DNA of 64,000 nt from an uncultured bacterium (lineage in GTDB: Bacteria > Patescibacteriota > JAHJAL01), in assembly GCA_938004065.1 (NCBI GenBank), contig CALKWM010000009.1, forward strand, positions 3,330 through 67,329. The letters run 5' to 3'. A model generated the notes under the pieces. It worked only from the letters and a program-made list of their open reading frames with translations, was not told the DNA's origin and ran no database searches. The translations under genes were made by a program, and so were the position numbers. This document shows, one piece after another, positions 50,249-59,158 of this stretch; within the stretch, counting starts at the first letter, position 1, and each line of letters begins with the position of its first letter.

Positions 50249-50557
50249 CTAAGTTTGATAATTTTTTTTATTTATTTCCAACATCTCATCGAAATTATCC
50301 TCCAGTTCGGATTTATTTTTCTTTTTGTGTCCACATTTCACGCATTCGTGAGTGATTGCATACTCATCTTTTTTCTTTTCCACCCAAACCGGTTTCATGA
50401 GACCACCGCAATTTGCTTCCCTATCACCCGGATTGACGTCAACATGCTTGGAGTATAAACAAAACGGGCAATGGTTGGTGTAACCGTTGCCTTGGACAAA
50501 TTGGCCACAATTTTCACAAATAAAATCTTCGATTTGTCGTTGGAATTTTTTGGACAT
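50249..50557 (-). CDS. RNHCP-domain protein
   Basis: FICENCGQFVQGNGYTNHCPFCLYSKH...THECVKCGH matches PF12647 (RNHCP). The start is moved to MSKKFQRQ because the longer ORF's first 17 codons are encoded by the adjacent inverted-repeat element. Confidence 0.6.
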   Translation of the reverse strand: MSKKFQRQIEDFICENCGQFVQGNGYTNHCPFCLYSKHVDVNPGDREANCGGLMKPVWVEKKKDEYAITHECVKCGHKKKNKSELEDNFDEMLEINKKNYQT

Positions 50558-50584
50558 AAAAAAATAATATCTAAATCCCCGAAG

Positions 50585-55048: not shown

Positions 55049-58000
55049 TTATAAATTATTTTCGGGGAATTTGGCTAAGATTTGTTGTTTGTTGTTGATG
55101 AGGTAGTCGCGACGCTTTCTTAATATTTCTTGTAATAATTTGCGATCATCAAATTCAAGTTTTACGGTATAAGTTAATCTCTCAATATCATCGTCTGATA
55201 AATTTTGCTCAATATTATTTATTTGTCTAGCAATATCTGATTGTGTTAGACCAGGATATTTTCCATTTTTTCTTAAAGAGTCAATTTCCACTACTTTGTC
55301 TTCCCAAAGAATATATTGATCTTCTTTATCAAATGCAGGATTAAAATCTCTGGATAATTTTTTACGATCACCTCTGGATCTGAATAACATAGATCCCCCA
55401 TTATCAATGCGGTATGCTTTACCATCGGTAGCGACATATTGATTAAGTGGAGCGTCCCAATTGGCCAGTAAACAATCGGCGATAAAACCATCATTGAATA
55501 TTTTTTCGTCATAACCGCTATGTTTTCTTTCTTTCCATTCGCTGGCTCGGGCGAGTTTGGTTTCTCCGTTCTCTGCTTGAAAATTTATTATTTCAGTTTC
55601 GGGAACATCAACACCTAACTTACGATAAATATTGTCTGCCAATTGTTCATGCCATAATCTATTATTTTGCTCGGCAACTTTTTTGTCGTATTCTTCCTGC
55701 GATTCGTTAATTCTCCTATTTGGCTTGAGCATAAATTTAAGATAGTATTCTTTGTCGTACAGAACTTCATTTATTTTGAATTTACCACCATCGGTATTTC
55801 CACCCAGATTACCAGTAATTCTTTCGTAGTTTTTGAAGGTGGAAATAGATATGTTGTTATTGATAGCTTGTGAGTAGTTTTTTTCAAGTTGAATTTCATT
55901 CTCTGGTATTTTATAACCAGAAAAATCACCAAAACCAGCTAGAAAATTGTAATCGATACCGGTAGTAGGTGATTTTACACGGATAACTTCTTTGTTTAAT
56001 GATTCCATCAATATTTTAGTGTCTTTAAATTTTGCATTATCAATATTGTTCTTTTTCCTAAATAAATCTAAACCATCATTAAAATTAATGTTTATTGCTC
56101 TTGTATTTTGAGGAACATCAAAATAAAATACTCCTCTGGGCTGTTTTTCCTTGGGTAACTCATTGATTAAATTATTGAAATATTCCTCACTAGTAATCAA
56201 ATCATTCCTGGATTGATCTTCGGCAATAACAAATATTCTTTTTTCAATTGGTATTTCATCACCGTTATCATCAAATATCAATTCTTCCATTTTCAAATTT
56301 TTAGGAGCCATGAAAACAGTATCTTCAAATGTTATTTTGTGTTCATCCAATATGTCATTTGTACCAGGTTCTACTAATTCGTTATTTTTACCGCGAATAC
56401 CTACATCATTAGCCGAAAATGTAATACTATTATTAATATCAAAAATATGTCCGCCAATCAGTCTTCCTTTCATGAGATGTGTCACTGGATGAGTGATAAA
56501 AGCACCAGGACATTTCATATTCCAGTCTTTCAATAAATGCTCAACGCCTCCATCAAAATATGCACCGTTGTAAGAATTATGGACGGCTGCTGAAGGGTGT
56601 TGAAATCTTCGCACTCCTTCATGATAACCATCTCTAAGATTTAGTGCTCTGGTAGATGCTTGATATCCATCTTTTAAAACATATGCACTGCCTGATGTAA
56701 TATGACATAACATACCACCGTGATTAAACAAAGAATTGAATTCGGTTATATTTTCTGGTTTAGAAAACTGTGATAATATATTTTTTACTTCTCTTAAGGT
56801 ATATTTTGATTCTCTGAAACTAAATATTTTTTCTATTCCTTTTTGGCCAATAATTTTTTCAATGATCTTAAATTTTGCTGTATTTTTATATATTTGAAAG
56901 TTATTAAAATATTCATATGACACTTCTTGTTCAGAACCTATGCTTGATATCAAATTGTCTATTATACTTCTATCAATTCTTGTCATATCTTTACCTGAAA
57001 TTAAATTCCTTAATTTATTTAATATTTTTTCTTTATTTCCTGCAAATTTCCCTTCAGAATTTATAGTTTCTTTAATGTATACATTGGTTGCATAATCAAC
57101 CATCTTCTTTTCAATAATATTTTCACCACTAAGTATTTTTGAGGTCAGACCGTATTTTTTTTTGTTTACTCTTGCGTAATTAAACAATTCTGTAGCCATT
57201 TGACCAAATATCATCTTTATTACTTTTTCATTATCCTCTTTGACTAATGCTGAATTGTCTGTGTTTTTATTGTTGAATTCAATATTCAAATCATCATGCA
57301 ATTTAAATTGACTATCTAATTCGAGGTTATAAATATTGCTAAAGGTTCTTTTAAAAGCATCCAAACTTTCTTTGTTTTTAATAACCTGATCTAAAATGTT
57401 GCTTATTTCACTATTGATATCAAAATAGCTTTTACTTTCAACACGCTCCAGACCTGATAATTGAGCACCGATACTTTTAAATTTCAAAAAATCTTCTCGA
57501 CTATATAGCCTGTCTTTATTATTTATAATTAATTTCTTATATTCATTTAACGCACTAATTTCATCGACAAACTTTCCTTTGTCCGGTTGGTGTTTGTAAT
57601 TTTTGATCAATTCATCGATGACATATTGCTCCAATTCGACTTTTTCGCGGGGGATAATGTTGTCCTCGCCCTCTTGGTAAATAATTTTGTTGAGGACAGT
57701 TTCTTTCAGTTGTGTGATTTGATCAGACAAGATAAATACTTTATCCCGCTCGGCTTCTAAATTTTTTTGTTCAATTAATTTTTGGATTTCTTCAATTTGG
57801 GGTTTTAGTGTTTCGATCTGATTGTAATGGGGTCGCTGGGTTTCAACCACCGCAGTCAAATCTGATGAATCTCCGAGATATTTACCAATCAGATTTTTGT
57901 AGGCAAATTTGAAATCAATTTTTTTGTTTTGTTTGATGTTTTCCCAGACATCTTTGATATTTTCTATGTAAGGTTGAGCATCTTTATCAAATTGCTTATT

Positions 58001-59158
58001 TAAATTTTGTTTAGCAATTACCATTCCCGCTTCGGCTTCGGCAAGCTGTTGTTCCGTCTCCATTTGTTTTTTCTCCAGATCTTGGATTTCTTGTTTCCTT
58101 TGCGTCAATCTCTGTTCCACCTCAGCTCTCTTGGCCGGATTTGAAGGTTGGGATAAGTTTAATTTTTGATTGAATCCGATATCCGATTCGGAAATTTTGA
58201 TGATATTGTCAATTTTTTCTTTGATTTCCGGTTTGGCAAATTCTTGTTTGATTTGTGGAAATCTTTTTTCAACAACTCGATAATTTAATTCACGAGTTTC
58301 AATGTTGGGAGATTTTTCGTATATTCTTTGCAAACTATCTAACTTTTCCCGCTGGGCCATTTTTTTCTGGTGTTCTTGAAAAATTTCTTTGACCAAACCA
58401 AGATATTGTTGGCGATCTTTGATAATTCCTTCTTTATATGCACCGCGAATTTTATTGATATCTTCAGTCAAAAAATTTCGATGATCGTCGAATAGATACT
58501 TTTCTTCAAAATTTCTAATCTTAGTATCTTTTTCTAGGTCGATTATGCCGGCATCATGCATATCAATCAAATTCAAACCTTTGGGTGTGAGGATAGGTTG
58601 AGCTGTGCCGTTTTTATTGAAGTGTTCCAATGATTCTTTGCGAAAATATTTGTCACCTTTATCACCAATTAATTTTTGCAGTTCAAAATAACGATCGATC
58701 AGTTTAATTTTCAGATTCCTACGACTTTCAAATACTTTTTCCGATTCCTCACTAAACAGAATTTCACCTGTCTTGTTTTCATAATCAGCTTCTTTGGATA
58801 AATGATACGACATTTGTTCATAGTCATCATACGCTCCTTCCAGCAAGGCATCTCGATTGTATTCGATCATCCAAATTGCATGGTGGATTTTGTCGTAATC
58901 AGCTCCTTTGCCCATTTCTTCATTTTTTCTGCCGAGATAGTTATTAACGAGCTTTTGATCAATAAATCCATACTTTTCAGCGTCGAATAACTTTTCATAT
59001 GCACTGAAGTTAACATAATCAGCGGCTTTGTTGTCAGCATTTTTGAACTGATTAATGTGTTTTGTGATATCTGATTTATAGATATCATAATCCTCCAAAA
59101 CTTCTTGAGTTCTAATTTGTTCTGATGATCTGGTTGTTTTTAGGCTAGAAATTGACAT
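55049..59158 (-). CDS. Giant (1369 aa) coiled-coil-rich protein with a C-terminal PI3K/PI4K-like (atypical kinase) catalytic motif
   Basis: No signal peptide. Long charged helical regions. The C-terminal region has a Gly-rich loop GNLGGNTDGGKFKI and a Lys in YYLKF. The catalytic/activation segment DCLLANWDAPLNQYVATDGKAYRIDNGG aligns with the PI3/4-kinase signature GDRHxxN-x6-G-x-L-x-HIDFG (the His is replaced). Confidence 0.45.
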   Translation of the reverse strand: MSISSLKTTRSSEQIRTQEVLEDYDIYKSDITKHINQFKNADNKAADYVNFSAYEKLFDAEKYGFIDQKLVNNYLGRKNEEMGKGADYDKIHHAIWMIEYNRDALLEGAYDDYEQMSYHLSKEADYENKTGEILFSEESEKVFESRRNLKIKLIDRYFELQKLIGDKGDKYFRKESLEHFNKNGTAQPILTPKGLNLIDMHDAGIIDLEKDTKIRNFEEKYLFDDHRNFLTEDINKIRGAYKEGIIKDRQQYLGLVKEIFQEHQKKMAQREKLDSLQRIYEKSPNIETRELNYRVVEKRFPQIKQEFAKPEIKEKIDNIIKISESDIGFNQKLNLSQPSNPAKRAEVEQRLTQRKQEIQDLEKKQMETEQQLAEAEAGMVIAKQNLNKQFDKDAQPYIENIKDVWENIKQNKKIDFKFAYKNLIGKYLGDSSDLTAVVETQRPHYNQIETLKPQIEEIQKLIEQKNLEAERDKVFILSDQITQLKETVLNKIIYQEGEDNIIPREKVELEQYVIDELIKNYKHQPDKGKFVDEISALNEYKKLIINNKDRLYSREDFLKFKSIGAQLSGLERVESKSYFDINSEISNILDQVIKNKESLDAFKRTFSNIYNLELDSQFKLHDDLNIEFNNKNTDNSALVKEDNEKVIKMIFGQMATELFNYARVNKKKYGLTSKILSGENIIEKKMVDYATNVYIKETINSEGKFAGNKEKILNKLRNLISGKDMTRIDRSIIDNLISSIGSEQEVSYEYFNNFQIYKNTAKFKIIEKIIGQKGIEKIFSFRESKYTLREVKNILSQFSKPENITEFNSLFNHGGMLCHITSGSAYVLKDGYQASTRALNLRDGYHEGVRRFQHPSAAVHNSYNGAYFDGGVEHLLKDWNMKCPGAFITHPVTHLMKGRLIGGHIFDINNSITFSANDVGIRGKNNELVEPGTNDILDEHKITFEDTVFMAPKNLKMEELIFDDNGDEIPIEKRIFVIAEDQSRNDLITSEEYFNNLINELPKEKQPRGVFYFDVPQNTRAININFNDGLDLFRKKNNIDNAKFKDTKILMESLNKEVIRVKSPTTGIDYNFLAGFGDFSGYKIPENEIQLEKNYSQAINNNISISTFKNYERITGNLGGNTDGGKFKINEVLYDKEYYLKFMLKPNRRINESQEEYDKKVAEQNNRLWHEQLADNIYRKLGVDVPETEIINFQAENGETKLARASEWKERKHSGYDEKIFNDGFIADCLLANWDAPLNQYVATDGKAYRIDNGGSMLFRSRGDRKKLSRDFNPAFDKEDQYILWEDKVVEIDSLRKNGKYPGLTQSDIARQINNIEQNLSDDDIERLTYTVKLEFDDRKLLQEILRKRRDYLINNKQQILAKFPENNL

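Follow-up and report, generated by a model that had tools for sequence, protein, structure and literature searches.

A conserved membrane AAA+ gene pair with lineage-specific neighbours, among them a giant CtkA-like kinase protein, in a patescibacterial genome

Five consecutive minus-strand genes occupy positions 50,249 to 59,158 of a 64,000-nucleotide stretch of DNA (hereafter the window) from an uncultured bacterium of the Patescibacteriota, or candidate phyla radiation (CPR) (assembly GCA_938004065.1, contig CALKWM010000009.1). They encode a giant protein of 1369 amino acids (aa) that ends in a kinase-like domain, a 103-aa membrane protein, a membrane-anchored ATPase of the Hsp100/Clp type (hereafter the Clp), a 346-aa helical protein, and an RNHCP-domain zinc-binding protein. 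A first-pass annotation of the DNA had grouped the five as a candidate cluster and suggested a secretion, conflict or host-interaction module rather than proteostasis. The five do not make up a single conserved system; in our sample, the only two that occur side by side in every lineage are the genes of the small membrane protein and the Clp. On balance, we consider it somewhat likelier than otherwise that the locus is one promoter-driven operon in which a conserved two-gene membrane AAA+ core has received lineage-specific additions, and that it is not a five-part system. An open reading frame (ORF) check of the window recovered all five genes where the first-pass annotation had placed them:

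50249-50608, minus strand: RNHCP-domain zinc-binding protein (Pfam); likely true extent 50249-50557, 102 aa (orthologue alignment)
50717-51757, minus strand: 346-aa protein, accessory (four clusters, alignment)
51880-54552, minus strand: 890-aa membrane-anchored Hsp100/Clp-type AAA+ protein (Pfam, NCBIfam, PDB alignments, hydropathy)
54730-55041, minus strand: 103-aa membrane protein (hydropathy, homologues upstream of Clp)
55049-59158, minus strand: giant 1369-aa protein, accessory to the operon core (ORF, homologue search, hydropathy)
55052-55906, minus strand: CtkA-like kinase domain of the HipA/PI3-4K-like superfamily, aa 1085-1369 of the giant (alignment, AlphaFold2, Foldseek)

The gene contexts of Clp homologues were sampled in 11 lineages. 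The small gene lies immediately upstream of the Clp gene in all 11, while the 346-aa and RNHCP genes are present in three and a giant of the window's type in two, which are sisters. Loci L001-L005, belonging to the lineage of protein cluster P0002, carry the five genes in window order with gaps of 14-16 nt, a 4-nt overlap of the 346-aa and RNHCP genes, and no repeat elements. Locus L008 contains trxB, the small gene (uncalled but intact), the Clp gene, a 348-aa orthologue of the 346-aa gene, and the RNHCP gene, with no giant. L010, from a marine patescibacterial metagenome-assembled genome, contains trxB, the small gene and the Clp gene only, without the giant, the 346-aa gene or RNHCP. In each of six distant Clp members that were looked up (L175-L180), the gene directly upstream encodes a small-protein homologue, which overlaps the Clp gene by 4 nt or lies no more than about 25 nt away (the gaps in distant loci are 0-25 nt); none of the six loci contains a giant, a 346-aa homologue or RNHCP. 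The gene-neighbourhood comparison that the first-pass annotation had proposed as a check therefore shows that the five are not co-conserved, an outcome that it had itself named as refuting its proposal and that largely does so. Those relatives that carry organism labels are Patescibacteria, in agreement with its description of the genome as episymbiont-like.

The Clp contains two tandem AAA+ modules (Pfam AAA_2, E 5.5e-57; ClpB_D2-small, 3.1e-21; AAA_lid_9, 2.7e-09) and was correctly recognised in the first-pass annotation as a membrane-anchored zinc-finger Clp. Its layout is a zinc finger at aa 12-26 (CxxC...CxxC), a transmembrane hairpin of two hydrophobic helices at aa 60-123 (from hydropathy), a Clp_N-like domain, a degenerate first AAA+ module (D1), an active-type second module (D2), and a D2-small domain. 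ClpB, ClpC and ClpA entries in the PDB match it at 1e-114 to 1e-139, and Clp_N matches are weak both in the window's Clp and in its relatives. An exhaustive HMMER search with residues 1-320 returned 73 clusters at 50% identity that align over the whole N-terminal region; the matching proteins are mostly 850-930 aa long, with some shorter. All 20 full-length members retrieved have a CxxCxGxG-type zinc finger and hydrophobic helices followed by the Clp body. The fingers of the relatives give weak DnaJ_CXXCXGXG matches, and the window's own finger is degenerate. In the P0002 lineage, the Clp N-terminus (L001, 9428-9500) has lost the zinc finger and kept the transmembrane hairpin and the remainder, so the finger is dispensable in at least one lineage. 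A literature search found nothing on a membrane-anchored Clp in CPR bacteria.

Comparison with characterised Hsp100 families sets the Clp apart. Its scores against NCBIfam equivalog models fall far short of every cut-off: 581 against 1232 bits for ClpB (whose model matches in two stretches), 526 against 993 for ClpA, and 461 against 885 for TssH. D2 aligns to that of Thermus thermophilus ClpB over 227 residues without a gap, and alignments to ClpC need approximately seven extra target residues. Since the gapless alignment spans the segment of the IGF/L ClpP-docking loop, the Clp has no such loop, and assignment as a ClpC-ClpP-type unfoldase was rejected. The D1-D2 body aligns to ClpA residues 168-734 in one stretch of equal length, from which it follows that there is no M-domain; the absence of this domain and the low equivalog score led us to reject a canonical ClpB disaggregase. 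A ClpV component of a type VI secretion system was likewise rejected on the TssH score and on gene context, as neither the window nor the related loci contain any type VI secretion genes.

The Walker A (GPTGVGKT) and Walker B (LLDExEKA) motifs of D2 are the same in all 51 subfamily members aligned. D1 is different: its Walker B 'DE' is found in none of the 51, its Walker A is often degenerate, and the window's D1 reads GVGKAT and IDDLH. Lacking the Walker-B glutamate, the D1 ring probably only binds nucleotide. The KYR pore loop of D1 is absent from the subfamily alignment, and the GYVG pore loop of D2 is deleted or shortened in most members and reads GSAEF in the window's Clp, where GAPPGSAEFEERG aligns to GAPPGYVGYEEGG of ClpB. 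The Clp thus shares with ClpB/Hsp104, ClpA and ClpC the two AAA+ modules, AAA_lid_9, ClpB_D2-small, the canonical D2 Walker motifs and a Clp_N-like domain. Unlike them, it has an N-terminal zinc finger, a transmembrane hairpin and a constant small membrane partner, its D1 lacks the Walker-B glutamate, and the tyrosines of both pore loops are lost; it also lacks the M-domain of ClpB and the ClpP loop of ClpA and ClpC. It therefore belongs to an undescribed Hsp100 subfamily: tethered to the membrane, with non-canonical pore loops and an obligate small membrane partner, and, judged from its motifs, powered by D2 alone without recourse to ClpP or DnaK.

The 103-aa protein has a soluble N-terminal half bearing the motif EPLYQDYxYQGRAIGFLIR and a C-terminal two-helix hydrophobic hairpin, consistent with its earlier label as a small membrane protein. 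It has no match in PHROGs. Its linkage to the Clp gene in 11 of 11 lineages identifies it as an obligate partner of the Clp in the lineages examined. In one clade of the subfamily, several type IV pilin-like (N_methyl) genes in a row come directly after the pair, and then DHH and S15 genes (L177, 5769-9731; L178, 4930-6361; L180, 5245-6578). This gene order hints that the pair may handle pilins, which are membrane-anchored proteins.

In Hsp100 hexamers, substrates enter at the face formed by the N-domain and D1. We propose that the core consists of the small two-helix membrane protein and the membrane-anchored Hsp100/Clp-type ATPase, a widespread and tightly coupled pair, and that the N-terminal anchor would hold the N-domain/D1 entry face against the membrane. 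Most likely, the Clp and its partner would grip, remodel or extract membrane or membrane-proximal proteins toward the cytoplasm, a proteostasis-type role performed without ClpP or DnaK. This would be the most economical mechanism, since only a short linker lies between the substrate-entry face and the membrane. FtsH and Msp1/ATAD1 serve as a working analogy for extraction, drawn partly from established knowledge and partly by extension: in these proteins too, an N-terminal anchor puts the entry face at the membrane. Unlike the Clp, they have a single AAA module, belong to other AAA+ clades and use canonical aromatic pore loops, FtsH also carries a protease domain, and there is no sequence relationship to the Clp beyond the AAA+ fold. 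HSP101 of the Plasmodium translocon of exported proteins (PTEX) and ClpV/TssH of type VI secretion resemble the Clp in being ClpB-like without a ClpP loop, and both have been recruited to secretion machines. In HSP101 it is the C-terminal face that docks on the pore; the window's Clp is anchored at its N-terminus, an arrangement that would favour extraction into the cytoplasm over secretion.

Downstream of the Clp gene, the 346-aa protein is all-alpha, with a strongly conserved core (LKLVPFAGPISDISEGVVGKDMYG...DATGYG). Its homologues fall into only four clusters at 52-99% identity, the counterpart in L008 being 66% identical. The first-pass annotation had called it PT-TG-like, a label we have dropped: Pfam searches of the protein and of three orthologues, at thresholds as loose as E<=10, yielded neither PT-TG (PF14449) nor any other family, toxin families included. 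PHROGs likewise gave no match, and an AlphaFold2 model built from the four sequences has a mean predicted local distance difference test score (pLDDT) of 48. The RNHCP label, by comparison, was accurate (Pfam PF12647, E 3.9e-28, 97.7 bits against a cut-off of 24), although orthologue alignment shifts the start to M18, at coordinate 50557. The RNHCP gene is always paired with the 346-aa gene in the loci examined, and the two overlap by 4 nt in L001 and in L008. We found nothing on the RNHCP domain in the literature. In the proposed operon, these two translationally coupled genes would be a 3' gain of the window's clade.

The giant protein would be the corresponding 5' gain, inserted between the promoter and the small gene. 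Its N-terminal region of approximately 1080 aa is rich in K, E, I and N and has no detectable homologues beyond one sister lineage; a full-length search of 5.8 billion proteins found a single homologous cluster, P0002, with 40% identity over the C-terminal half. Hydropathy analysis revealed no hydrophobic segment, signal peptide or transmembrane segment, indicating a soluble protein, and PHROGs returned no match. Only the last 285 or so residues have wider relatives. AlphaFold2 models residues from about 1090 to 1369 at pLDDT 83-98 and residues 808-1085 below 50. The top PDB match of this domain in Foldseek is CtkA of Helicobacter pylori (3akk, E 4.5e-5, probability 1.0), and a profile of the kinase family aligns to CtkA (3akj) motif by motif from sequence (E 5.6e-5). 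Fold and profile thus bear out the kinase-like motif that the first-pass annotation had noticed in the giant. Compared with a viral structure library, the domain matches giant phage proteins and a viral protein annotated as PI3K/PI4K best.

The motif residues of the domain comprise a Gly-rich loop (GGNTDGG), K1141, E1171, D1228/N1233/D1235/N1239 and D1252-N-G-G. K1141, E1171, D1228, N1233, D1235, N1239 and D1252 are invariant or nearly so in 53-57 family members and all are present in the window's protein, so the domain looks catalytically intact. CtkA (JHP0940, encoded by the tfs3 integrative and conjugative element (ICE) of H. pylori) aligns with the giant's family at the Gly-rich loop, the Lys, the Glu, the D..L.GN.D catalytic loop and the D-x-G. 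The two domains are only about 15% identical, and here the domain forms the C-terminal fifth or so (~20%) of a 1369-aa protein and carries the motifs LLANWD and YRIDNGG; HipA and PI3/4-kinases are more distant. The giant has no Pfam match at gathering score, including to PI3_PI4_kinase and HipA_C. Weak matches to HipA_2 in eight of 53 family members (best E 0.004) and to HipA_C in five of 53 place the family in the same superfamily.

A profile search for the kinase family found 62 proteins without Pfam domains, united by the motifs G-S-x-x-G, YxK, E..LA..IY, GFxADxLLANWD...N and YRIDNGG..FRA.G..K. The family was found at 276 metagenome loci and at 209 viral-contig loci in IMG/VR. Its distant members are embedded in proteins of 1000-1900 aa together with Phage_Mu_F, ART-PolyVal, ADPrib_exo_Tox, NUDIX, Portal_Mu and SNF2 domains, and so meet the definition of the polyvalent proteins of phages and conjugative elements (Iyer et al. 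2017, PMC5512222). The giant of the window differs from these in having no MuF, portal or other effector domain and in its chromosomal operon context. The Kinase-PolyVal family (PF18762) described in the same study is distinct from the present one, and locus L046 carries both. CtkA is an ICE-encoded Ser/Thr kinase that has been proposed as an effector of a type IV secretion system (PMC5536186). Mobile elements use the family as injected or secreted effectors, as exemplified by CtkA of the H. pylori ICE and by the MuF, ART and NUDIX polyvalent proteins of phages. Stand-alone kinase-like members fused to other domains form a diverse repertoire (P0012, P0015, P0017, P0023, P0046, P0056 and P0033), with partners that include HD phosphohydrolase, trigger-factor N-terminal, peptidoglycan-binding and MuF domains.

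Closer members of the family form the ends of giant CPR proteins of 1135 to >4100 aa, which share approximately 600 C-terminal residues with one another and only the kinase domain with the window's giant. BLAST and hhalign comparisons of the latter's pre-kinase region with these proteins found nothing (hhalign probability 0.2). L018 (6080-17079) encodes two tandem giants of 1739 and 1700 aa, the first of which contains the CtkA-like domain; they are inserted after rsmH and a ftsL-like gene, at the point where the division and cell-wall cluster would continue. Among the best 80 metagenome loci of the family, only two clades have a Clp gene within reach: that of the window, represented by the P0002 relative, and that of L012, L013, L022 and L030. 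The gene order in the second clade is a small gene (125 aa), a membrane Clp (837 aa, 35% identical) and a giant of around 1566 aa, which is non-homologous to the window's giant outside the shared kinase domain. This giant is one 1566-aa ORF in L022 (6080-10780) and is split into ORFs of 1341 and 317 aa in L012 (2925-7954) and also in L013, which reflects either a frameshift or assembly error or a genuine split that frees a stand-alone kinase. The two independent operonic adjacencies of a kinase giant and the Clp pair suggest some functional tie, with the giant as client, regulator or cargo. Because most pairs occur without a giant and most giants without a pair, any such tie is facultative.

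The relation of the giant to the operon's promoter could be read from conserved upstream sequence, in which two features were identified:

59185-59213, minus strand: promoter-like site upstream of the giant gene, TTGCTA, 17 nt, TG-TACAAT (9/12 match, extended -10)
59234-59265, minus strand: 14-bp GC-rich hairpin just 3' of trxB (partly conserved hairpin in L008)

A block (CCATAAAAACCTTGCWAAA...TTTTGGTACAATAA) is conserved ahead of the giant gene in both the window and L001; in L008, where there is no giant, it precedes the small gene. Cross-species alignment of the three gives a common promoter block of TTGCWA, a 17-nt spacer and TG-TACAAT. Since the upstream region of the giant aligns with that of the small gene, the giant has been placed precisely at the junction of operon promoter and small gene, and 7 nt separate it from the latter. 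The five genes are probably read from this one promoter, and the hairpin at 59234-59265 probably serves as terminator of trxB and so sets that gene apart from the operon. A consensus scan for promoters and terminators gave site counts equal to shuffled expectation, and the sites used here are solely those backed by cross-species conservation. The GC content of the giant gene is 32%, against 43-48% in neighbouring genes, a difference that is partly due to its K/N/I-rich composition. No integrase or repeats flank it.

The first-pass annotation had also described an inverted-repeat element in every gap between the genes. Hairpins were indeed found in three gaps, as follows, with none in the 7-nt gap between the giant and 103-aa genes:

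54591-54652: hairpin repeat CTGTCATC...GGGGATGACAG between the small and Clp genes (-22.4 kcal/mol, z = -3.4)
54659-54737: second long AT-rich hairpin, directly 3' of the stop codon of the small gene (-20.9 kcal/mol, z = -4.5)
51838-51891: degenerate repeat copy GGATGACAA, overlapping the last Clp codons and extending 3' of the stop (-17.1 kcal/mol, z = -1.9)
50585-50640: degenerate repeat copy GGATGGCAG in the gap between the 346-aa and RNHCP genes (-15 kcal/mol, z = -1.3)

The exact 9-mer GGATGACAG occurs five times in the window, against 0.29 expected. Within the cluster it is exact only once, at 54644, and the copies at 51883 and 50628 have one mismatch each; each local copy makes up the 3' base of a modestly stable hairpin. 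Neither the hairpins nor the 9-mer are present in L001 or L008, the hairpins being absent from the orthologous gaps and the 9-mer from both loci. No Rfam family matches the repeats at gathering score, and the local matches to hairpin families are sub-threshold and at chance level. The hairpins are genome-specific intergenic insertions, of the repetitive extragenic palindrome (REP) or miniature inverted-repeat transposable element (MITE) kind or of a 3'-end hairpin type, and no part of a conserved system.

Intergenic copies of the GGATGACAG type were seen at 2313, 7469, 27465, 40407, 50628, 51883 and 54644 of the window. All seven are in the plus orientation just 3' of minus-strand stop codons, and none was seen the opposite way round after plus-strand genes. 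A longer element is present three times, at 2236-2352, 27404-27503 and 40366-40446. Its outer stem, or terminal inverted repeat, of 13 bp (GAGTWGTGCTAAT ... TAGCACWACTT) surrounds a conserved core (ATATG...GAGGATGACAGATRAGARAA) and an optional, variable inner hairpin that is GC-rich. This element has the GGATGACAG core in common with the cluster hairpins and matches no Rfam family; a MITE and a small structured RNA are both conceivable.

The cluster is flanked by trxB and yifB, and synteny with the relatives L001-L005 extends to both. Further out, large secreted proteins are encoded on either side of the region (45389-48319 and 61758-63578, both minus strand) and show weak to faint Pfam matches to Big_1 and Invasin_D3; a counterpart in L010 (5508-7340) has an NBR1-type Ig-like match (N_BRCA1_IG). 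They probably act at the cell surface or in adhesion, as is typical of such proteins in episymbionts.

The combination of genes matches no described system, as the first-pass annotation had supposed. PADLOC matched only the Clp, and that to generic Clp-like models (PDC-M37B, 140 bits; DolB, 107 bits), with nothing for the other four proteins; membership of a known anti-phage defence system was rejected on these grounds. No names are recorded for the clusters of the window's proteins. The distribution of the pair across the lineage is easier to reconcile with a core role of the membrane-proteostasis type than with a dedicated conflict module. The proposed secretion, conflict or host-interaction module is only partly supported, chiefly by the effector-type character of the giant's kinase family.

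In the reading we favour, of a membrane AAA+ core with lineage-specific additions, the soluble CtkA-like kinase giant would most likely act as a client, regulator or effector and profit from being expressed together with the pair, and the intergenic hairpins would be repeat insertions specific to the window's genome. Several points weigh against it. Co-transcription is deduced from spacing, strand and one conserved promoter, and the hairpin insertions could act as terminators that split the operon in this genome. With both pore-loop tyrosines lost and D1 degenerate, the Clp may thread no polypeptides at all, and 'extraction' is for this reason uncertain. The adjacency of a kinase giant and the pair in two independent lineages of approximately nine, in either direction, hints at a tighter link than that of an add-on. 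Finally, the sample comprises 11 Clp contexts only.

A functional relation between the genes may be wanting altogether, if a compact genome has packed unrelated genes together behind a single promoter and the giant, selfish or horizontally acquired, landed in a permissive and well-expressed spot between trxB and the pair. The low GC content of the giant gene, its presence/absence polymorphism exactly at the junction of promoter and small gene, and the association of its kinase family with mobile elements are all consistent with this explanation, as is the reach of synteny to the housekeeping genes trxB and yifB, by which conserved gene order is not specific to the five. We nevertheless consider it unlikely. 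The composition of the protein largely explains the GC value, no integrase or repeats lie beside the gene, and a non-homologous giant with the same kinase domain directly follows a 35%-identical Clp elsewhere; by a rough estimate, two such adjacencies are improbable by chance. Less likely again is that phosphorylation by the giant, whether of substrates or of the Clp, targets or activates the membrane AAA+ machine, with the long N-terminal region of the giant as a scaffold. The ctsR-mcsA-mcsB-clpC operon of Firmicutes likewise links a protein kinase, a zinc-finger element and a Clp ATPase, and the N-domain of ClpC is a receptor for phospho-arginine. A kinase is operonically linked to a Clp-type ATPase in both independent arrangements, its catalytic residues are intact here, and a Clp_N-like N-domain is kept, with weak Clp_N matches in the window and in relatives. 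The resemblance to the Firmicutes operon is only organisational, however: McsB is an arginine kinase of the phosphagen-kinase type where the giant's fold is CtkA/HipA-like, and ClpC is soluble, docks ClpP and has an active D1 and pore loops. Furthermore, the pair has no linked kinase in most lineages, and the same kinase domain occurs mostly in phage effectors without a Clp.

We attach a lower probability still to the five proteins forming one secretion, conflict or host-interaction system, in which the Clp and its partner unfold the giant kinase effector and move it out of the cell, by analogy with HSP101 in PTEX, and the 346-aa and RNHCP proteins are accessory or immunity factors. The shared strand and promoter would be expected of such a system, and the giant, with neither signal peptide nor transmembrane segment, would need a dedicated route if exported. 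The use of its kinase family as injected or secreted effectors elsewhere, the second independent adjacency of a giant kinase and the Clp pair, and a T4SS_pilin gene within approximately 8 kb of the cluster point the same way. Set against these are the lack of co-conservation, with the pair found without giant, 346-aa gene or RNHCP in eight of the 11 lineages, and the many CPR kinase giants, most of them, that have no Clp nearby. The anchor, moreover, would turn the entry face of the Clp to the membrane and not its exit face, the tyrosines that thread substrates are missing from the pore loops, and no PADLOC system and no PT-TG or toxin domain was found. The most speculative possibility, to which we give the least credence of all, is that the small protein and the zinc-finger Hsp100 are an unrecognised CPR membrane AAA+ dislocase or translocase that in some lineages is dedicated to giant CtkA-like effectors used on the host.

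Were this last possibility true, it would represent a new route of protein handling or secretion in episymbionts that lack classical effector secretion systems. The CPR/Patescibacteria have minimal genomes, and both their membrane upkeep and their interaction with hosts are poorly understood. The small protein and its Hsp100 partner, with a dead D1 and neither pore-loop tyrosines, ClpP loop nor M-domain, are a testable candidate for a non-canonical membrane AAA+ mechanism in these bacteria. The Pfam-less family of CtkA-like kinases, abundant among giant CPR proteins and phage polyvalent proteins alike, adds to the effector-type kinases catalogued so far. The presence of kinase giants in the operon of the AAA+ pair, in two independent arrangements, leads to the specific hypothesis that they are its clients, regulators or cargo.

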